A stretch of DNA of 26,249 bases from Gammaproteobacteria bacterium (GCA_029268325.1 JAJUGC010000001.1:1-26249), one strand, 5' to 3'; shown: positions 6,694-26,249, counted from the first letter of the stretch. The notes: generated by a model from the letters alone, not told the origin. Made by a program: numbers and translations.

Positions 6694-6775
6694 AGCGTGT
6701 CTCCGGTCATGTTTGTTGTAAGCCGGCGGCCGTCGGTATCCGGCCCTGGGGGCGGAACCGGCCGAGCGTTCCGTT

Positions 6776-6808
6776 TTGTACTGGCAATTTCTTATCTTGT
6801 ACTTGCAA
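6776..6808. promoter_or_regulatory. Tandem 12-bp direct repeat at 21-bp period; candidate operator
   Basis: TTGTACTGGCAA (6776-6787) and TTGTACTTGCAA (6797-6808), 11/12 identical, in an AT-rich patch 83-115 bp upstream of the EF-hand gene. Confidence 0.45.
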
Positions 6809-6834
6809 GGGCTCGCCCAACAGGCGCACCGGGT

Positions 6835-7377
6835 TCAGCGAAGGTCCAGGCTGGGGCGGGACAGGGCTTCCGTTTTGCCGCCGGTAAGGTTTTCCAGGAT
6901 CGGTTGCAGGGGCCGGTTACGCACCTCCACGCTGACAAAATATTCAGGCTGATACTCATCTGCGATATAGCCCACGGTTTTATCGGGAAACTTGATGATA
7001 TACAGAGTCAGTTTGCCCCGGTTCTCGATCAGTTTCTCCGTCATGTCGCGGGTCTTCCGGTCCCTGAGTACCTGCAGGATGCTGGTGGATGGCTGCTCGT
7101 CGCCGAACAAGTCTTTCAGGTATTCCGCAGCGGGAATGGTGGTGCGCTCTTCAAACTCATCCCGGTGGACGGTGGAGATATGGATTTCGCTTCCATCCTC
7201 ATAGAGGGTGGTCAGGGTTGCGTTATCCAGGCTTTGGCTCTGAATCCCCGAAATAGGCAGTTGCATATTGTAATCTCCCACCCTCAGGGAGATGTGGGCC
7301 GGTTGCTGAGCGTAGAGGGATGTCGAAAGGGCGAGAACTGCTACCGCACACAACAGCCGATGAGAGGGTGTCATCAT
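6835..7377 (-). CDS. Hypothetical exported protein
   Basis: Signal-peptide-like N-terminus (HRLLCAVAVLALSTSLYA|QQ), preceded by GAGGATGG. 180-aa soluble mature part with no recognised family. Confidence 0.65.
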   Translation of the reverse strand: MMTPSHRLLCAVAVLALSTSLYAQQPAHISLRVGDYNMQLPISGIQSQSLDNATLTTLYEDGSEIHISTVHRDEFEERTTIPAAEYLKDLFGDEQPSTSILQVLRDRKTRDMTEKLIENRGKLTLYIIKFPDKTVGYIADEYQPEYFVSVEVRNRPLQPILENLTGGKTEALSRPSLDLR

Positions 7378-7613
7378 GGTGGGTCCATCCTCTTGTTACG
7401 GGTATTTCCCGATGGGTGAAGCCGTATTGTCCACGGGCCAGGCGCTTCCGGGTCAGGCAGGGGCCGGGTCATGAAAGGTTAAAGTATAAAAACCGGAACC
7501 CGCATCCCAAAGCCGGAGCCCAGCCAGGGGGCTCTTTGCCACATAATGGGCTTATAAGGGCTTCCTCGGAAGAAAGCCTGTATTACGTGCCGGTCAGGTA
7601 TTGGCGGGTCGAT

Positions 7614-7850: not shown

Positions 7851-10109
7851 ATGCTCATGAATAAACAGGATTTTGCCGCGGGAGGCAACGAGCAAGGCCC
7901 GGCACAGGGGGCCGTCCCCCCTTGGGAGGTGGACGATGTAGCGGCGAGGCCGGTACTCAACAATACTCCAAGCGTCATTGACCCGGATTGGGATGAAGCT
8001 TGCCGTATCGCGGAGCTGCTGGGCTTTGGGCAGGAGGCGGTGACTGCCCGCAAACGGGCCAGGAAACCCTATCACCCGGCGACGCGGCCGAAGCTTTCAC
8101 CCGAGGAAGCCGAGCGTTGGAACCGTCAAGAGCGGCGCCTATTGGATTTGTTGAACAAGCGTGCCTGGAAGAAACTGGCCACGGCGTTGACGGACATCGC
8201 CCGCCAGTCGCATCCCTTGGACCCCACCACACTGCAGCAACTGCATTATCTGGCCTGTACCCTGGCCGGCGGTGACTGGCCGGCCCTGCCCGAGGAACTT
8301 CGCCACGAAGGGGGCACCCTGGTTCAGGCCTTGGCCGATCTGGCGCGGCTGTTGCAATTGGCTCTGGAAGAAGACCTGGAGTGGGCGTTTGACCAGGGGC
8401 TGGCGGACCTTTCCCCCTATCTGATGGGGGATCGTCCCACGGAAATCCAGTTGCTGAACCCGTATCCGGTGGCGGTGGAAGGGCTGGTTGAGTCCGTCCT
8501 GGAGCGGCTGGGCGAACGGTTTGACCTGGAACGACGGGTCGGCCCACGGTTTCAGGCCTCACGCCTGTACTTCCGGCTTCGTCAGCTTCCCGGTCTGCGT
8601 GTGCAGGAGCAGGATTTCCTGCAACTGCGGGAGTCGGCAGGTGGACAGGCCTTTTTTCTCAACTTTCTTGGACGCCAAGGATTGATCCATTGGCGTCATG
8701 ATCCGAACAGCATCCGCGATGCCCTGGAATACCTCTGGCTTGCCTATCGACAGGAGTGCGAGTACGCCGAAGAGCCTTTGGTGGACCTGGGTCTGACGGA
8801 CTTGCAGCCGGTGGCAGAAACCGAGGTCGAAGCCTTCCGGGAGGCCTTGTCCCGTGGTGTGGCCTACCTAAACAACCAAGTCGGGGAAACTCTGGCTGGC
8901 CAGCGCTTTCTCCGGCACCTGTGGCGCAAGTATCTGAGGCATTACCAGGGCGTGCTGGCGCGTATTGAGCAGCCGGACTGCCTGGGGGCGCTGGTTCGGA
9001 TTCGGGGGGCTTTGGCGGATGAAATCGAACCTGAACTGGAGTTTACCCTTGCCGGCCTGGCGACCAGGTTGAGACATTGGCGCCTGGTGGAAGAAAGCTA
9101 TATGCGTGGTCTGGCCCTGGACCCGGATAATCTGGAAGAGACTTTGAACCTGGCCGCTTTCTATAAAAGCCGGAGTCGCTATGTGGAAGCGCGGGGGCTT
9201 TTGTCCAAGGCGTTGCGGCTCAGGCCGGGCGATCCTTTCCTGCAACGGCGACTGCGGGCTGTGGCTGACCGGCAGGATTTGCAAAGCCAACAATCCCCCT
9301 ATCTCACGCCCCTGCCGAATGGCAAGGCCGCCCCGGCCAAGGAGCTGGAGCAATTGGGTAACCTGGAGCTCTTATCCCTGGCGGCGATGGCAACTGGCCT
9401 GCAGTTTGATGGGAGCGGGCACTTGCGGGCGTTTAGCGAGGCAGAGCAGCTGATCTTTCCCCATGAAGGCATTCGCGACCGGATGGTGCGTGAGCTGCTC
9501 ACCAGCCATGGGCTGCTGGTCTATCGCTATTCCCAGGAGCAGAGTTACCGGGTGCAGGGGCTGCTCTTCGACTTTGACACGGACCGGGTGGAGTGGGTAT
9601 TGAATGCCCAGTCTGCGACCTATCCGGATCTGGCGCCGGAGGTCGCGGCCCTGCGCCTGTTGAGGGACCGTTTGACAGCGGACCCTGCGGTCATTACCGG
9701 GCTCTGGCGGCAGGTGGCCGGCCATGACCTGCTGTGCTACGCCCAGCATTGCTTCAAGCAGCTGGGTTGGTATCTGGATTCGTCGGATTATGTGTGGGAG
9801 ATGCTGGATTCCCTGCTTCAGCACCTGCCCTTTAAGCAAGCCATGGCTTTGGTTGACCTGGCCATTGCCGAAACTCAGGGGGATTTGGCGGCGCAGCGGT
9901 TAAGCCTGCGTCAGGCCGGCAAAGCAGCTGTCCGCTATATCCAGAGCAGCTATGAAAAAGCCATTCTTCGGGAGGTGGAGTTGGCGGAGGAGGTTCGAGT
10001 GCTGGAATCGGAATCGCTCTGGGTTCGCCTGTTCCGGATGGACCTGACCCAACTCGGCTCCTTGTATTATCAGATGGTGCCGGGGGAGGTGACGTTCGCC
10101 AGCAGCTAG
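7851..10109 (+). CDS. Large hypothetical protein with a central TPR pair
   Basis: 752-aa ORF with GGAG upstream (start may be ATG 7857). TPR-like helices WRLVEESYMRGLALDPDN and LNLAAFYKSRSRYVEARGLLSKALRLRPGD. Confidence 0.75.
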   Translation: MLMNKQDFAAGGNEQGPAQGAVPPWEVDDVAARPVLNNTPSVIDPDWDEACRIAELLGFGQEAVTARKRARKPYHPATRPKLSPEEAERWNRQERRLLDLLNKRAWKKLATALTDIARQSHPLDPTTLQQLHYLACTLAGGDWPALPEELRHEGGTLVQALADLARLLQLALEEDLEWAFDQGLADLSPYLMGDRPTEIQLLNPYPVAVEGLVESVLERLGERFDLERRVGPRFQASRLYFRLRQLPGLRVQEQDFLQLRESAGGQAFFLNFLGRQGLIHWRHDPNSIRDALEYLWLAYRQECEYAEEPLVDLGLTDLQPVAETEVEAFREALSRGVAYLNNQVGETLAGQRFLRHLWRKYLRHYQGVLARIEQPDCLGALVRIRGALADEIEPELEFTLAGLATRLRHWRLVEESYMRGLALDPDNLEETLNLAAFYKSRSRYVEARGLLSKALRLRPGDPFLQRRLRAVADRQDLQSQQSPYLTPLPNGKAAPAKELEQLGNLELLSLAAMATGLQFDGSGHLRAFSEAEQLIFPHEGIRDRMVRELLTSHGLLVYRYSQEQSYRVQGLLFDFDTDRVEWVLNAQSATYPDLAPEVAALRLLRDRLTADPAVITGLWRQVAGHDLLCYAQHCFKQLGWYLDSSDYVWEMLDSLLQHLPFKQAMALVDLAIAETQGDLAAQRLSLRQAGKAAVRYIQSSYEKAILREVELAEEVRVLESESLWVRLFRMDLTQLGSLYYQMVPGEVTFASS

Positions 10110-10600: not shown

Positions 10601-10964
10601 CGCTTTCTCCTTTTGGTCACTTAACCCAACTGTAGGCCTGGGCGACGGGTGTCCGCCGGTGACTTCGGCGTATCGGAGGGCACAGGGCCTGACGGGCCAA
10701 AACCATGGCCTTGGCAAAGGCCGTCTCCGAATTTCCCAGCTACTGTTGATTCATGTGGCTGATGGCCACGGCTTATCATTGTTTGATGAATCATTGACCA
10801 GTTTAGAACACTATATCCCCTCATGAAACCCCAAACCCGGACTCAGGTTGAAACCGCCGGGCCCATTCACCAGAACTAAGGGGATACCCATCCGCAGTCA
10901 AACGCCGTGTCTGGCCTTGCCGGCGGCTTTGCCACTGCTCCGCTTCCCAGGACAGGAGGTGCCT

Positions 10965-12038
10965 ATGCAACTGCCTCTCAAAAACCGGCGTGAGGCGGGT
11001 CGCGCCCTGGCCGCACTACTGGACGATTTTCGTGATCGGGACGATGTGCAGGTTTTGGCGCTGCCCCGGGGTGGGGTGCCCGTGGCCTATGAAATCGCCA
11101 TGGCGCAGGATGTGGATCTGGATGTGTTGATCGTGCGCAAACTGGGCGTTCCCGGCCATGAAGAGTTGGCCATGGGGGCGATTGCCAGCGGTGGCGAACG
11201 GGTGATGAACCAGGAAATCGTGCTGTTTCATCAGATTGACCAGGCGACGGTCGATGCCGTGGTGGCGCGGGAAACCCAGGAACTGGAGCGGCGGGAGCAG
11301 GAGTATCGCGCGGACCGGCCACCACCGGAGTTGCAGGGCAAGACAGTGATCATTGTAGATGACGGCCTGGCCACCGGAGCGACCATGCGTGCCGCTATCG
11401 AGGCGGTGAGTCGTCAGAAACCGGCGTGGGTGGTCATAGCGGTACCGGTGGCGGCCTCTGTTACCATCAACCTGCTCCGGACTGTTGTCAACGAGTGCAT
11501 TGCCTTGGCGACCCCGGAACCCCTGTTTGCGATCGGACAGTGGTATCAGGACTTTGCCCAGACCACCGATGAGGAGGTCAAGCGTCTGCTGGCGGATGCC
11601 TGGAGTCGCCAAGGGGCGGCCAGGGTTGACGTCTTGGATGACGACATCCAGCTCACCAAAGTGGTTCCGGAGCAGTGGACAGGGTTTTGCCAATCCTTTG
11701 CTGAGGATCACCGGGGCTGGCTGGTGACCCTGGGAGAGGTGGATACCCGGCAGCTGCAGGAACAGCCAGACAGAGCCCGCCATGCCATGCGCAAACGGGC
11801 TGATGGCGTGCCCCTGTGCAAGGTGGCGTATGACCCCGGCCAGAATGCCGTGTTGGTCGAGGTCAGTGAAGACCAGCAGGCCCGCCAGCTGTATGTGGAC
11901 CACCCGGTCAGCCTGTACCGGGAACGGGTGCAGGATGCCGACAAGGGGCTGCGGATTGATACGGAATCCGGCACCTCCATGCTGGTGGAGTTTCATCCCG
12001 TCCCCTCTCCGGCGGAGCGAGCGGGAGTTCAGCGCTGA
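10965..12038 (+). CDS. Type I phosphoribosyltransferase (COG1926-like) fused to a C-terminal DUF5335-like domain
   Basis: ATG 10965 after AGGAGGT; NRREAGRALA, LALPRGGVPVA, RKLGVPGHEELAMGAIA and PRPP motif VIIVDDGLATGATM (11358-11384). Extra C-terminal domain PEQWTGFCQSFAEDHRGWLVTL...GLRIDTESGTSMLVEF. Confidence 0.82.
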   Translation: MQLPLKNRREAGRALAALLDDFRDRDDVQVLALPRGGVPVAYEIAMAQDVDLDVLIVRKLGVPGHEELAMGAIASGGERVMNQEIVLFHQIDQATVDAVVARETQELERREQEYRADRPPPELQGKTVIIVDDGLATGATMRAAIEAVSRQKPAWVVIAVPVAASVTINLLRTVVNECIALATPEPLFAIGQWYQDFAQTTDEEVKRLLADAWSRQGAARVDVLDDDIQLTKVVPEQWTGFCQSFAEDHRGWLVTLGEVDTRQLQEQPDRARHAMRKRADGVPLCKVAYDPGQNAVLVEVSEDQQARQLYVDHPVSLYRERVQDADKGLRIDTESGTSMLVEFHPVPSPAERAGVQR

Positions 12039-15015: not shown

Positions 15016-15240
15016 GCTTCAGGCAGGTTAGCGCCGAAGGAGTATAACCCTGGCGCTAGCCGATAAAAAACCACTAACTTTCCGTGCCGGGCCACGGCCT
15101 TTCCTTGTGAGGGGGCAGGGCGTTCTTTATCTTCTGGTGAGCAGGCAGGACAGGTTCAATAACGATCCCACAACCTCACTTCGCCTCCTGGCTGCATCGG
15201 ATTCCCACTCCGAGATTCCTGTTTGCAGAAGGATGAGCGG

Positions 15241-18200
15241 ATGCAACTTTTACCCCGAGTTCGGCAGAGTCTCCGCTATGTGCTGGGTCAGAACCGGCAA
15301 AGCTGGAGCAGTGGCAGCATTCTATATGTGGAGCTGCGTGGTGGCTGTGCCCATGACAATGACTTCCTAGACCGGCTGGAGGCGGCCCTGGAGCAGGCGC
15401 CGCAAGTACTTTGGAGCCGCTATGTGCCGGAACTGGAGCGGCTGGTGATTGCCAAGGCCCACAAGGACCTGCCCGACTCTACCGTGCTGAGGCTGATCCG
15501 GGCCGTAGAGAAGGAGTACGGGCACCAGCGCAAGCTGTTCAAGACCCATACCCGCTTCCCGGGAGAGGGCGCGTTGCTGGCGCAAACCGGATTGCAAATT
15601 GCAGCGGATGTGGCGGGGCTAGCGTTAGGGACGGTGCTGGGCCGCTCCAAGGGGCGTCGCACCAGGATGTTCACGGACTTTAACGCCTTGATCACACTGG
15701 TCGACAACTTCCCGGAGTTGCGTGAGCCCCTGGTGAGCTGGCTGGGGCGGGATAACGTCGACATGCTGCTGAGCCTGTCAGCCACCTTCAGCGAGTCCAT
15801 GACCAAGGGGCGTTCCGGTGGGGTGCTGCGTCTGGCGCTACGCATGCAGGAGTGGAGTGCGATCCAGGCTCGCAAAGCCGTGTGGCTGGATCTGGAATCC
15901 CACTGCCTGAGTTTGTGGGAGCGGGCCAGCCGTCTGCGGGGCAGCTTCCAGCGCCGCATGACACCGTTGCCCAATGGCCCGATCGAAGACTATACCGCCA
16001 CCTCCGAGAAGCTGGCCATGGCAAGCTTTAGTGTGGAGCTGGCCAACACCCATGACCTGACCAATGCCACCGCGGCCTTGTTCGCCGCGGTTCCCAAGCC
16101 GGCCAACTACGGTCGGGAAGCCTTTTGTATCGAACTGGAGCGGCGCTTGGCCAAGGCAGGAGTCTTGGTCGTGGAGCCCCGTTCGCTACGGGCCCTGGAC
16201 CGGGTGTCCCGGGTGCTGGTGGATTCCCGTCTGTTGTCCCAGGTGCGTTGCTCTGTATCCACGGTCAAACCCTTTGCCGAGGTTGAAGATCTTTATGGGC
16301 GCTTGGACCGGATGATTGTCCGCAACCGGGTCACGGAGCAGGATCGGGGTGAGGAGTGGCGGCTCGAGGCACCGAGCAAAGTTGAGGGTTTGCCCGAGGC
16401 GGTGCGGGACTGGTGGCAGGATTATGGCCTGCCCCTGTCGGATCTGAGGCTGCTGTGGCGGGGCCAGCAATTGGTGGCCGCTGCCGTGGTTCAGGAGGTT
16501 CTGGATTCCACCGTGGAAACGGTTCTGGCAAGGGTGCGGCGTACTGGAGCCAACCTGGTTCTGGTCGGTGAGGAGCAGGATATTCCCCCCAGTTGCCGGG
16601 TTTATCAGCACATGAGCTATCGCCAGGCCCGGCGCTCCATGAAGCTTTGGCAGGCCAGTGGGGAGGTGATTCTCGCGGTCGGCTGGAGCGAGGTGCTGAT
16701 GGGGGCGGACATCGGCATCGGAGCCCTGGTGGGAGATGGGCCCTGGCCCCGCCATGCCCATGTGCTCACCCGCGACCCCATGGACACCCTCTGGCGCTTT
16801 GCCATTGCCCGGGATCAGGGGCGAAAGACCGCGGAGCAAAGTGTCATCCTGTCCCAAATCGAAGCCTTCAGTGCCCTGGTCCTGTCCCTTAACAAGCTGA
16901 ACATGGCCACGGTGCGGCGTATTCGTCAGAGCGCCAATATTGCCAGTGCGATTGCCATGATCAATGGCATTCGCCTGGCGCGCCAGGTGGACGCGTTGCC
17001 AGAGGAGCTGCGTCTGGATCCGGCTCCCTGGCATGCCATGGATGTAGAAACGGCCTTGCTGCGGCTGGACTCCAGCACTGAGGGGCTGACCTGGCAGCAG
17101 GCCCGGGCTCGCTTGCCAGAGCCGGTGCCTGAACCCGGAGCGATGTTGCACTTCCTGGATGCGGTCATGGCGGAGCTGGGCGGGCCTTTGGTGCCCGTGC
17201 TCCTGGCGGGAGCGGGGCTGTCGGCCCTGACCGGAGCCTTGTTGGATGCCGGACTGATCGGCGCGGTGGTGGCCATCAACGGTATGGTGGGCGGCATTCA
17301 GCGCTATCGTACGGAGCAGCAGCTGCGTTCCCTGGATCATCAGGAGCGGCGCAAAGTGCGCTGCCTGCGGGATCGGCAAGAGGTGGCCCTGGAGCCTGAC
17401 GCCCTGGTGCCGGGAGACGTGATCCTGCTGGAAGCCGGGGAGGTGGTGCCTGCGGACTGCCGTCTGCTGGAGGGCAATCACCTGGAAATGGACGAGTCTT
17501 CTCTCACAGGAGAGTCGTTACCCGTGGCCAAGCGGGTGCGCCCCAGCTATTCGGTGACCTTGGCTGACCGGAGCTCCATGCTGTACGAAGGAACGGTGGT
17601 GGCAGTGGGGGAGGCGAAAGCCCTGGTGGTGGCCCGCAAGGATGTGTCCGAGTCGCGCCGGGCCCACTATCTGCAGCCAACGGCCAGGAGCGGAGTTGAG
17701 TCCCGGCTGGATAGCCTGACTGCACTTACCTTGCCGGTTGCGGCTTTCTCCGGAATTGGCGTCATGATTTCCGGGCTATCCCGTAACCGCCCTGTGTCCG
17801 AGATGGTCGGCGCTGGCGTGAGCCTGGCGGTGGCCGCGGTGCCGGAAGGCTTGCCGTTGCTGTCCACCATGGCCCAGATGGCCGCAGCGGGACGCCTGGC
17901 GGAAACCGGAGCCGTGGTGCGCAATCCGCGGGCCATTGAAGCCTTGGGGCGGATGACGGTGCTGTGTGCTGACAAGACCGGCACCCTGACAGAAGGCGCC
18001 CTGGCCCTGCGGGTGGTGGCGCTGGACGGTGAAGTGCAGGCCATTAACAGCCTGAATGAAGACGGCCGGCAACTGCTGGCGATCAGTATGATGGCCAGCC
18101 CCGAAGACAATAGGGGCAAGGGTCTGGCCCATGTGACCGACGATGCGGTCCTGCAGGCCGCCCGTGAATACAACGAAGATCTGTTTGACGAAACCGGGGC

Positions 18201-19803
18201 CTGGCGGCGGATCAAGGAATTGCCCTTCCGCTCGGAGCGGGGTTATCACGCCACCTTGGCCGAGCGCCATGGCAAGCGCTGGATCTGTGTGAAAGGGGCG
18301 CCCGATGTGCTGGTTCCTTTCTGTGATCGCTGGAAGCGGGGCACCGGGCGTATCACTCGCATCAACCAGAAATCCCGACAAAAGATTCTGGATTTGGCCC
18401 ACGACCTGGCAGCGCGCGGCTATCGGGTCCTGGCGGTCGCCGAGCGGGCCGCGGTGAGCGAAGTGTTGAACGAGGACAAGGTCGAGCGCCTGGTCTTTCG
18501 AGGCTTTCTGGCGTTGGCAGACCCGGTTCGGGCCACGGCCCGGGAGGCCGTGGAAGCGTTAAACCATGCTGGCGTTGGCGTGAAGATTGTCACCGGCGAC
18601 CATCCGGTCACCGCCTTAGCCATTGCCCGGGAGTTGGGTATCAATGCCGAACATGCGGTTCTGACCGGTTCAGAGATCGAAAGCCTGAGTGACCAGGCCC
18701 TGGCGACGCGGGTGGGCAAGGTGCAGGTCTATGCCCGGGTCACGCCCCGGCAGAAGGCGCGGATTGTGGCCGCCTTGCAGCGCTCCGGCGAAGTGGTAGG
18801 CATGACCGGTGATGGAGCGAACGATGCCGCCGCCATGCGTTTGGCGGATGTGGGAATCGCCCTGGGTGAGCGCAGCACCGCGGCGGCTCGGGCTGCCGCG
18901 GATCTGCTCGTGATCGATGGACGGATCGAAACCATTGTGGCGGCCGTCTTGGAAGGGCGGGCTCTGTGGAGTAGCGTCCGGGACGCGGTCGCCCTGCTGG
19001 TCGGTGGAAACCTGGGCGAAATCGGCTTTACCTTGCTGGGTGGGCTGGTGGATGGCCGCTCGCCTTTGAATGCCCGTCAGCTGTTACTGGTCAATCTGCT
19101 CACCGATACCCTGCCGGCGTTGGCGGTAGTCCTGCGTCGCCCCCAAGGGATCACCCCCGAGCAGCTGCTGGGTGAAGGGCCGGATGCTTCCCTGGGCGAA
19201 GCCCTAACCCGTGATATCCAGTGGCGTGCGGGCCTGACCACCGGGGTTACTTCAGCCTCCTGGATGGTTGCCCGCCTTCTCGGCAGCCCCCAGCGGGCTT
19301 CCACGGTCGCCTTGCTGACACTCGTGGGAGGCCAGTTGGGGCAAGCCATCATGGCCGGGCGCGGCAGCCGGGAAGTGGTGCTTGCCGCCGTCGGAACCTG
19401 GGCGGTCTTGGCGGCCATCGTGCAGACGCCGGGGATCAGCAAGTTGTTCGGCTGCCGTCCTTTGGGGCCTTTGGGTTGGACCCAGGCAATCACGGCCATT
19501 GGGGTGTCGGTCTTGGGGGCGCGCTGGATGCCGGAGCTGCAGCGTTGGAGTCAGACGGCTGTGCAGACCCTGACCAGTGGTGTCCAGGACTGGCTGGCGG
19601 ACGAGGAGGATGCGGAACTCATTGCCTTGCCGCCTCCCGAGGGTGAGGAATCAGAAGCCCCATTGACCCAATGGCTGCCGGATCTGGCGGAGTGGTTGCG
19701 TACACCGGAGCGGATGGTGCGGGACATGCAGGCTTGGTTTGTCGGGGAGGAGGCCGAAACTGAGGCACCAGCGCTTGAAGGGGAGTATCGGGTGCTGCAC
19801 TGA
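15241..19803 (+). CDS. Very long cation-translocating P-type ATPase (CtpH/CtpI-like): P2A-type C-terminal half plus degenerate N-terminal ATPase copy
   Basis: TGES, PEGL, DKTGTLT (17971-17991), KGAP, TGDH and GDGAND (18808-18825). ATG 15241 follows AAGGA; 1520 aa. Confidence 0.92.
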   Translation: MQLLPRVRQSLRYVLGQNRQSWSSGSILYVELRGGCAHDNDFLDRLEAALEQAPQVLWSRYVPELERLVIAKAHKDLPDSTVLRLIRAVEKEYGHQRKLFKTHTRFPGEGALLAQTGLQIAADVAGLALGTVLGRSKGRRTRMFTDFNALITLVDNFPELREPLVSWLGRDNVDMLLSLSATFSESMTKGRSGGVLRLALRMQEWSAIQARKAVWLDLESHCLSLWERASRLRGSFQRRMTPLPNGPIEDYTATSEKLAMASFSVELANTHDLTNATAALFAAVPKPANYGREAFCIELERRLAKAGVLVVEPRSLRALDRVSRVLVDSRLLSQVRCSVSTVKPFAEVEDLYGRLDRMIVRNRVTEQDRGEEWRLEAPSKVEGLPEAVRDWWQDYGLPLSDLRLLWRGQQLVAAAVVQEVLDSTVETVLARVRRTGANLVLVGEEQDIPPSCRVYQHMSYRQARRSMKLWQASGEVILAVGWSEVLMGADIGIGALVGDGPWPRHAHVLTRDPMDTLWRFAIARDQGRKTAEQSVILSQIEAFSALVLSLNKLNMATVRRIRQSANIASAIAMINGIRLARQVDALPEELRLDPAPWHAMDVETALLRLDSSTEGLTWQQARARLPEPVPEPGAMLHFLDAVMAELGGPLVPVLLAGAGLSALTGALLDAGLIGAVVAINGMVGGIQRYRTEQQLRSLDHQERRKVRCLRDRQEVALEPDALVPGDVILLEAGEVVPADCRLLEGNHLEMDESSLTGESLPVAKRVRPSYSVTLADRSSMLYEGTVVAVGEAKALVVARKDVSESRRAHYLQPTARSGVESRLDSLTALTLPVAAFSGIGVMISGLSRNRPVSEMVGAGVSLAVAAVPEGLPLLSTMAQMAAAGRLAETGAVVRNPRAIEALGRMTVLCADKTGTLTEGALALRVVALDGEVQAINSLNEDGRQLLAISMMASPEDNRGKGLAHVTDDAVLQAAREYNEDLFDETGAWRRIKELPFRSERGYHATLAERHGKRWICVKGAPDVLVPFCDRWKRGTGRITRINQKSRQKILDLAHDLAARGYRVLAVAERAAVSEVLNEDKVERLVFRGFLALADPVRATAREAVEALNHAGVGVKIVTGDHPVTALAIARELGINAEHAVLTGSEIESLSDQALATRVGKVQVYARVTPRQKARIVAALQRSGEVVGMTGDGANDAAAMRLADVGIALGERSTAAARAAADLLVIDGRIETIVAAVLEGRALWSSVRDAVALLVGGNLGEIGFTLLGGLVDGRSPLNARQLLLVNLLTDTLPALAVVLRRPQGITPEQLLGEGPDASLGEALTRDIQWRAGLTTGVTSASWMVARLLGSPQRASTVALLTLVGGQLGQAIMAGRGSREVVLAAVGTWAVLAAIVQTPGISKLFGCRPLGPLGWTQAITAIGVSVLGARWMPELQRWSQTAVQTLTSGVQDWLADEEDAELIALPPPEGEESEAPLTQWLPDLAEWLRTPERMVRDMQAWFVGEEAETEAPALEGEYRVLH

Positions 19804-21607: not shown

Positions 21608-22936
21608 CTACTCATCCAAGGGCTCGACCAGGCGGCCCTGGAATCCTAGGCGCCGGGCTGTCTGGCGGAAGGCGGGAAAGTGGTTCAGGTCCGCTTCACC
21701 ATGCTCCAGCAGGACCAGGGCTTCGACCAGGCAGCCGGGAATGTCCCGGTTGTTCCAGGCGGGCATGCGCGGCCACATGGAAAACAGGTGGTGGGTCAGG
21801 ACAATCTTCTGGGTTTGGATGCGGTGGCTCTCCAGCAGTTCCCGCACTTCCAGGCTGATGCAGGGATGGGTGTCGTCGGCAATCAGGGCGCCTGGCGGCA
21901 GGGCATCGACCAGATCACGGATCACATCGCCATGGTGGGTGAGGGCGACGAACAGCCGGTGATCCGCTAGGCGTGCCCGGTCGGCAGTACGGATGATGGT
22001 GCCCTGACCCCGATCCAGGCGTTGCTCTTCCTGATAGCGGGGATCGAAGCCATAGACCTTGGGAAACAGGTCCAGCAGATCCTCGCAGACCATGTTACCG
22101 ATCCGCCCCGCTCCTCCCAGGACGGTAATGCCCTGCTCGTGTTGGTAGGGGGTCATTTCCTTCATTTTACGCACCGCTTCCCAAATCATGTACCGGGTGC
22201 CCATGGAGCCATCCACGAGGGGCGGCTCAATGGGAATACCCGCCTTCATGGTGAAGTTGGGCAGGCGTCCCACCAGGGCAATACAGGTGACATCCGGAAA
22301 GTCCCGACGCAAGTGGCCGATGTATTCCCGCACTTTATCGGAGTCCTGGGCCAGTTCACTTTCCAGGTATTTGGAGGCGACCAACAGTCCACGGCGGCCC
22401 CGGTTCCGGATCACGCCTCCGATAATGGTATTGGGCAACAGCTTTTCCATGGTGGGTGTGTAATAGGTCTGCACGTCCCGGGCTGAGCCATAAACCGCAA
22501 CCAGGACGCTGGGCCGGACCCATTTCAGCAGCAAGGGGCGCAGCAGGGTATTGGCTCCCAGCACGCCGGCCCGGCGGCTTCCCTTCCAGGCGGCGCGCCG
22601 GAAATAGACCCGGGCCCGTTGGGAAAGTGGGGCGGCCTGAACGAGATTATCAATATCATTGTCGGTAAGGCGAACCCGATGGAGTTTGAGACCGACATGA
22701 CTCTTGCCCACATGGACGACCCGTGCCGGCACTTTAAAATTGCCGGGTCGATTGAACTGGATATTGAGGGCTTGGCCGGGTTCCAGGGCGATGTCTTCCG
22801 GCTTTGCCAGGCGCAGGCCACTGAACGAGAGGTTGAGCGTACTGGTGCTCAGGCTCTGGTCGGCAACATCGACCGTCACGGGAATCCGGATCCCGGTTCG
22901 GAAGTGTCTCCGATATTCTCCATGAGAGGTTTTCAT
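21608..22936 (-). CDS. PilZ domain fused to an acyl-ACP-reductase-like (AAR/COG5322-like) NAD(P)-binding oxidoreductase
   Basis: PilZ motifs RRHFR (22898-22912) and NLSFSG (22817-22834); Rossmann VLGGAGRIG (22097-22123); AAR-like blocks LVDGSMGTRYMI, LIADDTHP, IPGCLVEALVL and ARRLGFQ. Confidence 0.8.
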   Translation of the reverse strand: MKTSHGEYRRHFRTGIRIPVTVDVADQSLSTSTLNLSFSGLRLAKPEDIALEPGQALNIQFNRPGNFKVPARVVHVGKSHVGLKLHRVRLTDNDIDNLVQAAPLSQRARVYFRRAAWKGSRRAGVLGANTLLRPLLLKWVRPSVLVAVYGSARDVQTYYTPTMEKLLPNTIIGGVIRNRGRRGLLVASKYLESELAQDSDKVREYIGHLRRDFPDVTCIALVGRLPNFTMKAGIPIEPPLVDGSMGTRYMIWEAVRKMKEMTPYQHEQGITVLGGAGRIGNMVCEDLLDLFPKVYGFDPRYQEEQRLDRGQGTIIRTADRARLADHRLFVALTHHGDVIRDLVDALPPGALIADDTHPCISLEVRELLESHRIQTQKIVLTHHLFSMWPRMPAWNNRDIPGCLVEALVLLEHGEADLNHFPAFRQTARRLGFQGRLVEPLDE

Positions 22937-23021: not shown

Positions 23022-25610
23022 ATGGAGGCAAGGCCAGATTGCCGAAGCAGGGCGCTAAGATGTCGGTTACTGGTGAGCCTCTTGCTGGCCTTGGGAATAG
23101 TCTTATGGAGCATGCCCGGTTGGAGTCAGGGGCCGGACCGCTACTCCCTGGACGCGCAACTGCAATTCCTGGTCGACCCGTCCGATAGCCTGTCGCTGGC
23201 AGAGGCCCTCCGTAGCGATCAGTGGCAGCAGAACAGGTCCGGCAAGGTCATTAACCGCGGCTTTTCCGACGACACGCTTTGGGTGCGGGCCCGGGTTCCG
23301 GGAACTGTGGAAGGGGCGGAGTCCAGATATCTGGTGATCCCCTATCCCTTGCTGGAGCAGGTCAGGCTGTATGTGCGCGATCCCGCCAGCGGGGCCTTGT
23401 TGAGCCAGTCCGATCAGTCCCAGCTCCGGGCCCAGCAATCCTTGCTGTATCACTTCTACTTCATGATTTTTCCCCTGCCGGAGGACAGCACGGGCACTTT
23501 GGATCTGGTGCTTCAGGTCAAGTCCGCCACTTCATTGCAGGTGCCCCTGGAAGTTTGGTCGGAACAATACCTGGTGCGCTACCAGATCTACGAAACCCTG
23601 TTCTGGGGGCTGTATTTTGGTGTCATCCTGGCTCTGGGAGCCTTTAACCTGTTTGTCGCCTGGTCCGTGCGGGATAAGGCCTACCTGTATTATGTGTTCT
23701 ATCTCGCCTCAATGGCTGGAGTCATGCTGACCTTGTCCGGCCTGGGTTCGGCTTACTTGTGGCCCCAGGATCCCACTTTTCACCGCTATGTGCTGCCCAC
23801 CTGTACGGCCCTGACGGTGATCTGGGCCTTGCTCTTTACCCGTAAGTTCCTGTACCGGCGCGGCTTTCCCGGCAAGCTCGATGCCACTTTGGCGGTTATC
23901 ACCGGCTTTGCCCTGGTGTTGATCCTGTACTCCTGGACTGAACCCTTGCAGGGGCTGAAGTGGTCGGGCGTCTTGGGTGGTCTGGTGGTTGTGTTGGTGA
24001 CAGTGGCCGGCATTCGGGCCTGGTCGGCGGGCGTGGTGATCGCCCGTTACTTTGTCCTGGCCTGGTTGATGTTTGCCGCAGGCGCGGTGGTTTACCTGCT
24101 GGCTATCTTCGGGGTTTTGCCAGTCTCCCGTTTTTCCAACCATGCCTTTCAGATCGGCTCGGCCCTGGAAGCGGTGTTCCTGTGCTTTGCCCTGGCCCAT
24201 CGCATCAAGGAAGAGCGCCAGGAAAAGCTCGATGCCCTCCAGCAGCGCCACCAGGCCGAGCAGCAGGTGCGGGCGCTGGAACGAGAGACCCTGGAATACG
24301 CCACCCGGGATCCGGTGACCCGCATGCCCAACGAGGCCCTGTTGCTGGCCCGGCTCCAGGAACTGATCCACGCCGCCTCCCCGGGCCAGTCCTGGGCCCT
24401 GGTGATCCTGCACTTTCCCCAGATGAAGGAGCTGTTGTCGTCCCTTGGGCGGGGGCTGTCGGAATCCCTGTTTCGCACCCTGACCCGCCAGCTCAACCTC
24501 ATCCTGGCGGACAGCCCTTCGGCCACCTTTATCGAGGAGAAACATCGGGCCTATCTGGCCGTTCTGGATTTTGGCTCCCTGGCCCTGATCTGTGAAACCA
24601 GCGGGGAAGAGGGCGTGGCGAGCCGGCTGGTGTCGCGCATTATGCGCCATTTCGAATCTCCCATTGATGTCAGCAGTGTGGCGGTCAGCCTGGACCTGTT
24701 TGCGGGAATCGCCTGTTATCCCAGCCATGGGGATCGGGCCGACTTGCTGCTGCAGTATGCGGGGGCGGCCAAGGACGAAGGACTGCGCCGGGGAGAGCGG
24801 ATCTTTATTTACAGCCCTGAGCTGGATGCCTATGGGCGTCGTCGGCTGGCCTTGATGGGCGCCCTGTCCCGGGCAATTGGCGACAATGAGCTGGAGCTTT
24901 ACCTGCAGCCACAAATGGATTGCAGCGGGCGGGGGCTGGTGGGAGCCGAGATCCTGCTGCGTTGGAATAGCCCTCGCTACGGCCGGGTGTCGCCTGGGGA
25001 GTTTATCGAAATTGCGGAAAGCGCCGGACTGATAGGGCCGCTGACCCGCTATGTGGTTCGCCGTTCCCTGGAGTTGCTGCATTCCCTGAACCAGAACGGC
25101 CTGCATTTGACCTTGAGTATCAACCTGTCGGTGCAGAACCTGATCGAGCCGGATTTCGTCCGTTTTATTACCACCTGTGCGGAGCATTACCAGGTCAGGC
25201 TGTCGGACCTGATCCTGGAAGTAACCGAAACCACCCTGATCGAAAAAGTGGGCACTGTGGTCGACAATCTGGAGCAGTTGAGCGCGGCTGGATGCAGTAT
25301 CGCCTTGGATGACTTCGGCACGGGGTATTCCTCGCTGGCTTACTTGAGCCGGCTGCCCATCCATGAGCTGAAGATTGACCGCAGCTTTATCAGCCAGATG
25401 AAGCAAAACCTGAGCAACCTGCGGATTGTCGAGAACACCATCAAACTGGCCCGGACTCTGCGGATCCAGACTGTCGCCGAGGGCATCGAAGACCGGGAAA
25501 CCCTGGAGGCGGTCACCCGGATGGGCTGTGACCGGGTACAGGGCTATCACATCAGCCGGCCCATGCCCGCCGCCGAGTTCCGGTATTGGGCCATGCAGGT
25601 GGCGGGCTAG
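23022..25610 (+). CDS. 7TM-DISM sensor / degenerate GGDEF / EAL c-di-GMP phosphodiesterase
   Basis: DISMED2-like periplasmic domain (FLVDPSDSLSL, GFSDDTLWVR, YPLLEQVRLY); 7TM (LYFGVILALGAFNLF, YLYYVFY); EAL set EIL (24948-24956), INLS, LEVTE, DDFGTGYSSL (from 25308), LKIDRSF, VAEGIE, QGYH. Confidence 0.92.
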   Translation: MEARPDCRSRALRCRLLVSLLLALGIVLWSMPGWSQGPDRYSLDAQLQFLVDPSDSLSLAEALRSDQWQQNRSGKVINRGFSDDTLWVRARVPGTVEGAESRYLVIPYPLLEQVRLYVRDPASGALLSQSDQSQLRAQQSLLYHFYFMIFPLPEDSTGTLDLVLQVKSATSLQVPLEVWSEQYLVRYQIYETLFWGLYFGVILALGAFNLFVAWSVRDKAYLYYVFYLASMAGVMLTLSGLGSAYLWPQDPTFHRYVLPTCTALTVIWALLFTRKFLYRRGFPGKLDATLAVITGFALVLILYSWTEPLQGLKWSGVLGGLVVVLVTVAGIRAWSAGVVIARYFVLAWLMFAAGAVVYLLAIFGVLPVSRFSNHAFQIGSALEAVFLCFALAHRIKEERQEKLDALQQRHQAEQQVRALERETLEYATRDPVTRMPNEALLLARLQELIHAASPGQSWALVILHFPQMKELLSSLGRGLSESLFRTLTRQLNLILADSPSATFIEEKHRAYLAVLDFGSLALICETSGEEGVASRLVSRIMRHFESPIDVSSVAVSLDLFAGIACYPSHGDRADLLLQYAGAAKDEGLRRGERIFIYSPELDAYGRRRLALMGALSRAIGDNELELYLQPQMDCSGRGLVGAEILLRWNSPRYGRVSPGEFIEIAESAGLIGPLTRYVVRRSLELLHSLNQNGLHLTLSINLSVQNLIEPDFVRFITTCAEHYQVRLSDLILEVTETTLIEKVGTVVDNLEQLSAAGCSIALDDFGTGYSSLAYLSRLPIHELKIDRSFISQMKQNLSNLRIVENTIKLARTLRIQTVAEGIEDRETLEAVTRMGCDRVQGYHISRPMPAAEFRYWAMQVAG

Positions 25611-25645
25611 AAGCAGCGCTTGGAGCCAGGGAAAGAGAGGGCGTT

Positions 25646-26249
25646 ATGGAGGTTCCTTTTACCTTTGTGGTGAATGCAGGGTCCGGCAGCCAGGATGCGG
25701 AGACAGTGCTGGCCGCTATTGAGCGGTTGATTCCCAGGGAGCGCCAGGGCCGCTTCGTGATTATCCGGCCCGGCGATGACCTCCGCCAGTTCCTGGATGA
25801 TGCTGTGGAGGACTGTCGGCAATCGGGTGGAGTGCTGGTGGCGGCGGGAGGCGACGGCACGGTGAATGCCGTGATCAAACGGATCCTGCCCCTGGGGCTG
25901 ACGCTGGGGGTGATTCCTTTGGGAACCTTTAATTATTTCGCACGCCAGCATGGCATTCCCCTGGAACTGGACGAGGCCCTGGCCAACCTGCTAACCGCCG
26001 AGGCGGTCAAGGTGCCGGTGTGCCAGGTCAACGGCGAGCCCTTTATCGTCAACGTCAGTCTGGGCCTGCATGCCCGCATTATTGCGGCCCGGGAGCGACA
26101 CACCAAAATCACCGGACGTAACCGCTTTGTGGCAGTGGTCTCTGGCTTGGTGACCGCCTTACAGGAGCAATACAGCCTGCGCGCCCGGTTGGTGCTGGAC
26201 AAGCGGCCCTTGCACCGTAAGGCGGCCATGGTGCTGGTGGGCAACAATA
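25646..26249 (+). CDS. Diacylglycerol-kinase-family (YegS/DgkB-like) lipid kinase; 3' end runs off the window
   Basis: Hand translation: MEVPFTFVVNAGSGS...VLVAAGGDGTVNAV (GGDGT 25847-25861)...LGVIPLGTFNYFARQHGIP...VNGEPFIVNVSLGL. It is missing from the ORF track because there is no stop in the window. Confidence 0.88.
   Translation, partial: MEVPFTFVVNAGSGSQDAETVLAAIERLIPRERQGRFVIIRPGDDLRQFLDDAVEDCRQSGGVLVAAGGDGTVNAVIKRILPLGLTLGVIPLGTFNYFARQHGIPLELDEALANLLTAEAVKVPVCQVNGEPFIVNVSLGLHARIIAARERHTKITGRNRFVAVVSGLVTALQEQYSLRARLVLDKRPLHRKAAMVLVGNN

Follow-up and report, generated by a model that had tools for sequence, protein, structure and literature searches.

A PilZ domain fused to an enzyme domain of the AAR/TAD superfamily in Pseudomonadales, a candidate c-di-GMP receptor enzyme

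The window considered here is the whole 26,249-nt stretch of DNA analysed from a Gammaproteobacteria bacterium (GCA_029268325.1 JAJUGC010000001.1:1-26249), whose source is a 71%-complete metagenome-assembled genome (MAG). Our subject is a gene at 21608..22936 that fuses an N-terminal PilZ domain to an enzyme domain with the fold of acyl-ACP reductase (AAR; ACP, acyl carrier protein) and of TAD, a domain of the nonribosomal peptide synthetase (NRPS) CarI. The gene lies on the minus strand, as do all coordinates given within it. Its open reading frame (ORF) is intact, encoding 442 aa plus the stop codon from an ATG at 22936. An alternative TTG start is possible two codons upstream, yet 442 aa is the length of nearly all homologues (>178 homologues). 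The gene is single copy in its own genome, and its nearest relative, at 93% identity, comes from an uncultured Pseudomonadales MAG (L013). Homologues carry no public name beyond 'PilZ domain-containing protein' or 'predicted amino acid dehydrogenase'. A Pfam scan placed PilZ at residues 9-99 and left the remaining ~340 residues with no significant match, while an NCBIfam scan of the 442-aa protein matched nothing, the AAR model TIGR04058 included. An AlphaFold2 model from 38 homologues had a pLDDT of 87 and a pTM of 0.80, with disorder confined to residues 1-10.

The PilZ domain (22640..22912) matched PF07238 with 48.7 bits (cut-off 22.5; E 1e-12) and has the six-stranded beta-barrel of that fold. 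An initial annotation of the window, made from the sequence alone, had described an intact PilZ with RxxxR at residues 9-13 followed by NxSxxG, and conservation bears this out. In the RxxxR motif of the arm that binds cyclic di-GMP (c-di-GMP), R9-R-H-F-R13 (22898..22912), R9 is kept in 47 and R13 in all of 48 species-level orthologues. The (D/N)xSxxG motif, N35-L-S37-F-S-G40 (22817..22834), retains D/N, S and G in 47 of the 48 at each position; both motifs were read from the translation. Residues 1-10 had pLDDT below 50, as expected of an unliganded arm. PilZ is followed by a helical connector (residues 92-140; 22517..22663), delimited by DSSP of the model and by invariant columns. It holds a long basic helix (104-129) and the invariant residues R114, R121, N129 and R133, and its part from residue 124 on can be aligned to N-terminal elements that TAD has and AAR lacks.

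The enzyme domain (residues 143-439; 21620..22510) has two lobes, a macrodomain-like N-lobe and a Rossmann C-lobe, and this fold matches across the whole chain. The best Foldseek match in the PDB was the TAD of CarI (7.5e-13), then cyanobacterial AAR (9.3e-11), with the rest at 1e-5 or worse. Against Swiss-Prot models AAR ranked first (6.6e-11, residues 144-433) and the C-terminal domains of plant CER1/CER3 came next. An hmmsearch with a family profile of 80 members reached TAD at 1.2e-7 (profile positions 55-178) and AAR at 4.2e-6 (positions 92-248), both matches extending over stretches outside the Rossmann loop. By hhalign, the enzyme family aligned with the profile of an AAR-type family, represented in the same genome by a gene on contig C374, over 271 columns (Prob 92.8%, E 4e-7), with Cys402 on Cys. 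Single-sequence and narrow-profile PDB searches returned the PilZ domain, generic Rossmann loops and nothing else. A 'NifU' match in the PDB (E 0.006) was dropped as merely a short glycine-loop resemblance.

TIGR04058, which represents EC 1.2.1.80, gave no match to the 442-aa protein at E<=1. Searched over the whole genome, it matched the C374 gene (6.4e-25) and never the PilZ fusion, even at E<=10. The domain is thus outside the AAR family proper and at least as close to TAD; it is brought nearer to TAD by the absent TIGR04058 match, its N-terminal elements, its Asp-Asp loop and its Asp298 (both discussed below). The initial annotation had called the C-terminal domain AAR-like. That stands at the level of the superfamily, on Foldseek and profile evidence, and does not stand for the AAR family itself. 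A better alignment to an unrelated dehydrogenase, named beforehand as grounds for rejecting the idea, was not seen, since TAD and AAR lead the Foldseek results. The enzyme family is a third branch alongside those of AAR and TAD. We are highly confident of the overall architecture, PilZ plus enzyme, of membership in the AAR/TAD superfamily and of the pairing with a dedicated phosphodiesterase, described below.

The C374 gene (L076:417-2474, plus strand) encodes a second protein of the AAR superfamily, of 686 aa. Its C-terminal ~350 aa gave the TIGR04058 match, which is below that model's cut-off, and its N-terminal ~330 aa had no Pfam match. A profile of C374-type proteins reached PigE at 8e-32 and AAR at 4e-17. 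Identity among its Marinobacter, Ketobacter, Hahella and Litoribrevibacter versions is ~80%, unusually high for a protein with no proper name; public names do not go beyond 'dehydrogenase' or 'serine carboxypeptidase'.

The active site predicted for the PilZ fusion resembles that of TAD. The Rossmann glycine loop, G274-G-A-G-R-I-G280 (GxGxxG; 22097..22117), opens a helix at 277-287 in the model and is invariant in all 48 orthologues. Directly past strand beta-2 (293-297) stands Asp298 (22043..22045), a predicted determinant of NAD(H) over NADP(H) that is likewise invariant in the 48 and present in at least 90% of an 80-member family alignment. In TAD, Asp2102 confers NAD specificity and excludes NADP (10.1101/2024.10.28.620694), and Asp298 is its probable counterpart by alignment. 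The loop D354-D-T-H-P-C359 (21860..21877) would correspond to the Asp-Asp-Ser-Gly-cisPro nicotinamide loop of TAD; HMMER superposes DDTHP on TAD 'DDSGP'. DDTHP (354-358) is found in 48/48 orthologues, and in the 80-member alignment D, T and H are each kept in at least 90% and P is invariant. Alignment likewise suggests the residue equivalences to TAD in this loop and a cis configuration for its proline. The second Asp of the TAD loop, which stacks on the nicotinamide, has been suggested to give NAD+ preference over NADH; AAR has Gly at that position (10.1101/2024.10.28.620694). AAR-type proteins, the genome's own C374 protein among them, have Ala-Arg at the Asp298 position, and the C374 protein has D-V-A-R-P at the DDTHP loop. 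His357, specific to the enzyme family, is a plausible candidate for the general base acting on the thiol.

That thiol is expected to be Cys402 (21731..21733), the predicted acyl-enzyme nucleophile, within IPGCLVEA. All 80 family members have it, including those with as little as 21% identity, and it starts a helix facing the nicotinamide. It aligns with the Cys of TAD 'NIMGCAFSAL', of the own-genome AAR-like 'YACLAET' and of PigE 'NGCMAET', and HMMER lays 'wiPGClveAlv' over TAD 'NIMGCAFSALL'; retention of a catalytic-Cys equivalent, as first annotated, is thereby confirmed. TAD Cys2238 occupies the same position in space as Cys294, the nucleophile that forms the acyl-enzyme in AAR (10.1101/2024.10.28.620694). 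Across the 48 species GxGxxG, D298, DDTHP, C402 and E405 are invariant or nearly so, and stand-alone homologues in the 80-member alignment retain the same active site. Because of this TAD-like site, with its invariant Asp298 past beta-2 and its DDTHP loop, the predicted cofactor is NAD(H), not the NADPH of AAR.

The fusion was compared with the closest known systems. AAR (Synechococcus elongatus Q54765; PDB 6JZQ, 6JZU) is 16-19% identical to the enzyme domain. Unlike AAR, the fusion has Asp298, the DDTHP loop, extra N-terminal helices and the PilZ domain itself, and its hosts are heterotrophic gammaproteobacteria rather than cyanobacteria. No aldehyde-deformylating oxygenase was found in the window or among conserved neighbours; no genome-wide search was made for it. 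The TAD of carmabin CarI (PDB 9E4S, 9E4U, 9E4X, 9E50, 9E56; 10.1101/2024.10.28.620694) shares the Asp-Asp-x-x-Pro loop. It has a TTG motif where the fusion has VDG and Gly where the fusion has His357, and it sits C-terminal in NRPS modules behind a peptidyl carrier protein, whereas the fusion is free-standing and outside any biosynthetic cluster. TAD showed no reductase or release turnover in vitro and was proposed to amidate (10.1101/2024.10.28.620694). With TAD's own reaction unproven, nearness to it widens rather than narrows the range of possible chemistries.

COG5322-type thioester-reductase domains, as in PigE (PDB 4PPM sequence) and in KecF of the koreenceine pathway (PMC6498172), belong to the same superfamily. 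The enzyme-family profile reaches PigE at 2e-4, and a Cys-x-x-E-A/T motif is common to both. These domains are predicted to make aldehyde from a carrier-bound thioester; they are fused to an aminotransferase in pigment or alkaloid clusters, whereas our enzyme is fused to a second-messenger receptor and has no cluster. The C-terminal domain of plant CER3/CER1 (WAX2) matched by Foldseek at 1e-9 to 5e-8 over residues 142-436. It has an aldehyde-forming acyl-thioester reductase fold acting at the membrane, but is eukaryotic, joined to a membrane domain of the fatty-acid-hydroxylase type, and only 10-12% identical. On the receptor side, cellulose synthase BcsA and the alginate co-polymerase Alg44 carry canonical PilZ domains in cis to, or working with, a catalytic machine, with c-di-GMP as an allosteric on-switch. 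The PilZ of the fusion is 20-26% identical to that of BcsA. BcsA and Alg44 are exopolysaccharide glycosyltransferase systems, whereas here an N-terminal PilZ is borne by a cytoplasmic thiol/NAD thioester enzyme. To our knowledge, the PilZ-gated enzymes known so far are exopolysaccharide synthases.

Divergent from the fusion gene, on the plus strand (23022..25610), lies a gene for an 862-aa protein in which Pfam found 7TMR-DISMED2, 7TMR-DISM_7TM, a degenerate GGDEF and EAL. This partner has no GG[DE]EF; EILLR, DDFGTG and EGIE are present. An orthologue of it stands beside the PilZ fusion in 60 of 61 species loci, the remaining locus being cut by a contig end. In 58 the two genes are directly adjacent, and in the other two they lie ~0.7 and ~3 kb apart. 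The two genes diverge in 26 loci (the window, Ketobacter, HdN1, Allohahella, Oleiphilus); in 34 (Marinobacter and allies) they run in tandem, with the partner downstream. GG[DE]EF is missing from all 60 partners, whereas every full-length one has ExLxR, and most have DDFGTG and EGVE. Since GG[DE]EF is gone and ExLxR kept, we read the partner as a putative sensor c-di-GMP phosphodiesterase. A complex prediction of the fusion protein with the partner's cytoplasmic GGDEF-EAL part scored 0.00, which speaks neither for nor against binding.

No neighbour other than the phosphodiesterase gene was conserved across the species loci. A DAGK_cat lipid kinase gene (25586..26248, plus strand; Pfam 9.4e-21), truncated where the window stops, overlaps the phosphodiesterase gene by that gene's final 25 bases and so may be co-transcribed with it. 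Linkage of the kinase gene to the module is restricted to the window lineage and its 93% relative, and we rejected it as a module component because it is not conserved within the PilZ clade. A downstream 144-aa membrane ORF, SlyD and a DUF6968 gene were also rejected, being conserved only in the closest relatives. NRPS and polyketide synthase (PKS) genes were absent from the window and from five annotated homologous loci.

The wider enzyme family was collected by an exhaustive profile search of 1.84 billion protein representatives, which yielded 234 clusters at 50% identity. Most members are free-standing proteins of 320-360 aa, and ~8 have hydrophobic N termini resembling transmembrane segments. 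An N-terminal extension the size of PilZ was seen in 9 of 148 listed representatives scanned, and Pfam confirmed PilZ in all four extended members tested (P0125, P0129, P0169, P0171). In a maximum-likelihood tree PilZ fusions occupy at least two separate, well-supported positions, P0171 being an independent fusion; PilZ has therefore joined this enzyme family more than once. P0171 (L109:7001-9229; 742 aa) carries two PilZ stretches and a hydrophobic segment besides its enzyme domain, and has a MASE8 histidine kinase downstream and hybrid kinases upstream. Another member, P0222 (L010:259-2415; 718 aa), has an N-terminal phosphopantetheine-attachment carrier domain (Pfam 2.3e-7) with a 'GLNSS' site, which hints that the enzyme family acts on carrier-bound thioesters. 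The contigs of P0222, P0150 and P0125 are too short for informative gene context.

Within the searched data the PilZ form is limited to Pseudomonadales lineages, largely marine degraders of hydrocarbons or lipids: Marinobacter, Ketobacter, strain HdN1, Halospina, Tamilnaduibacter, Saccharospirillum, Allohahella and Oleiphilus. Among 201 genomes sampled from the window's own family it was present in 41, covering 10 of 21 genera and always in single copy. In an even phylum sample it occurred in one of 400 genomes, and there the family was seen solely in the window's own taxonomic family.

Stand-alone members have neighbourhoods of their own. In an order with ~1-Mb genomes (L078, L079, L080, L096-L107), the enzyme gene is followed by a HisKA_7TM histidine kinase gene in 16/16 loci. 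Bactofilin and DAGK_cat genes come next in 14 of the 16, and arginyl-tRNA synthetase is usually upstream; this block is either a functional unit or inherited synteny. A Rhodobacteraceae homologue (L108:3375-7828, ~25% identity) lies near a divergent TetR regulator, PspA/IM30, a PlsC-like acyltransferase and the CDP-diglyceride synthase CdsA, a phospholipid or membrane-stress context with no sensor gene. Although part of this pattern may be inherited synteny, a role at the membrane or in lipid chemistry is suggested by how often the enzyme gene recurs beside polytopic membrane sensors and lipid genes.

Together these data suggest that a thioester reaction, probably one of lipids, is under the direct control of a second-messenger switch. 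We propose that the protein is a c-di-GMP receptor enzyme in which PilZ gates conversion of a thioester to an aldehyde. The substrate, an acyl thioester (acyl-ACP, acyl-CoA or an acyl group on some other carrier) and most likely a lipid, would acylate Cys402 in the cleft between the lobes, with His357 the likely base. A bound nicotinamide cofactor would then reduce the acyl-enzyme to aldehyde, as in AAR, PigE and CER3; because of Asp298 the reductant is predicted to be NADH. Binding of c-di-GMP to the PilZ arm and barrel would shift the connector helix (104-129) and the N-lobe, so that the cleft opens or closes, while the adjacent 7TMR-DISM EAL phosphodiesterase would set the local c-di-GMP level in response to an envelope signal. 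Taken as a whole, we consider this proposal somewhat better than an even bet. Its parts differ: that c-di-GMP gates catalysis is likely, whereas reductive aldehyde formation from a fatty-acyl thioester falls a little short of an even chance. Fatty-acyl reduction and control of wax or aldehyde synthesis, the role first suggested for this gene, are no more than plausible.

Several points weigh against the proposal. The enzyme family is known here from sequences and models alone. TIGR04058 does not detect the protein, and TAD, one of the two joint-closest structures, was inactive in vitro as a reductase or release enzyme and was proposed to amidate. The Asp-Asp loop shared with TAD, suggested to favour NAD+, fits oxidation or non-redox use no less than it fits reduction. 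No gene for acyl-ACP, fatty-acid metabolism, wax synthase, deformylase or aldehyde consumption is a conserved neighbour. The carrier-protein fusion P0222 is a single 2.7-kb metagenomic contig, and in the small-genome clade the shared gene order may be a legacy of common descent and not a sign that the genes work together.

The alternative that survives best keeps the fold, the Cys402 acyl-enzyme and c-di-GMP gating, and changes the chemistry. The enzyme could run in reverse, acting as an acylating fatty-aldehyde dehydrogenase that depends on NAD+ and channels aldehydes from alkanes into thioesters; or it could off-load or amidate its substrate non-reductively, like TAD, with NAD not a net reductant. 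The match of DDTHP to the TAD loop, whose second Asp is proposed to favour NAD+, fits either variant, as does Asp298, which predicts NAD rather than biosynthetic NADPH. TAD is moreover the top PDB match by Foldseek, in an alignment that takes in its extra N-terminal elements. Fatty aldehydes are catabolic intermediates in degraders of hydrocarbons and lipids, and the hosts are mostly such organisms (Marinobacter, Ketobacter, HdN1, Oleiphilus, Allohahella). However, there is no NRPS or PKS nearby, TAD chemistry is itself unproven, and the characterised superfamily members act reductively (AAR, CER3 and, as predicted, the PigE/KecF type); NAD preference alone also leaves the direction of reaction unfixed. 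We regard a different chemistry as the less probable course, at perhaps one chance in a few.

A more speculative idea, which we think improbable though worth stating, is that the enzyme family is a dedicated partner of polytopic membrane sensors, making or destroying a membrane-soluble acyl-derived signal that the sensor reads; the signal may be an aldehyde, alcohol or amide. The sensors paired with the family are the 7TMR-DISM EAL phosphodiesterase in Pseudomonadales, the HisKA_7TM kinase in the ~1-Mb genomes and the MASE8 kinase beside the double-PilZ member. If true, the PilZ clade would close a feedback loop between a lipid signal and c-di-GMP, a kind of circuit not described before.

PilZ might instead be no catalytic switch at all, but a docking module, or the enzyme domain a non-catalytic adaptor, so that the protein would be a scaffold or effector for the neighbouring phosphodiesterase. 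Some PilZ proteins do act by protein-protein contacts (MapZ-CheR1 and YcgR structures were among the matches), and the sole conserved neighbour is a signalling protein; but both c-di-GMP-binding and active-site residues are invariant or nearly so across 48 species and stand-alone homologues retain the same active site, so we find this quite unlikely. That the protein is a dehydrogenase of the amino-acid, shikimate or malic type, as implied by the label 'predicted amino acid dehydrogenase' assigned automatically to some homologues, is very improbable indeed, TAD and AAR being the leading structural matches.

A literature search found no paper linking PilZ with AAR, COG5322 or TAD-type enzymes, nor relevant work on Marinobacter or wax esters, in agreement with the initial annotation, which knew of no described PilZ-AAR fusion. 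A survey of PilZ architectures mentions no fusion to a dehydrogenase or reductase (10.1101/814665), and the TAD study found no homologue of established function and does not mention PilZ (10.1101/2024.10.28.620694). Were PilZ to gate a cytoplasmic thiol/NAD thioester enzyme directly, acyl or lipid chemistry would be added to the processes under c-di-GMP control. The host bacteria live on oil droplets and store wax esters. The module is limited to two genes, one for the receptor enzyme and one for its dedicated sensor phosphodiesterase, which makes it a compact test case for local c-di-GMP signalling. Solving the family's reaction could also help with TAD chemistry, and the family could yield an NADH-dependent aldehyde-forming reductase for biotechnology.

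Elsewhere in the window, all on the plus strand, two ORFs (6697-7419, 240 aa; 7851-10109, 752 aa) matched no Pfam family at E<=1e-3. A very long P-type ATPase of 1526 aa (15223-19803) has all its recognisable ATPase domains in the C-terminal half, from residue ~709 on, preceded by ~700 aa with no Pfam match. Finally, a 396-aa protein (10848-12038) combines a phosphoribosyltransferase domain with DUF5335, an uncommon architecture.
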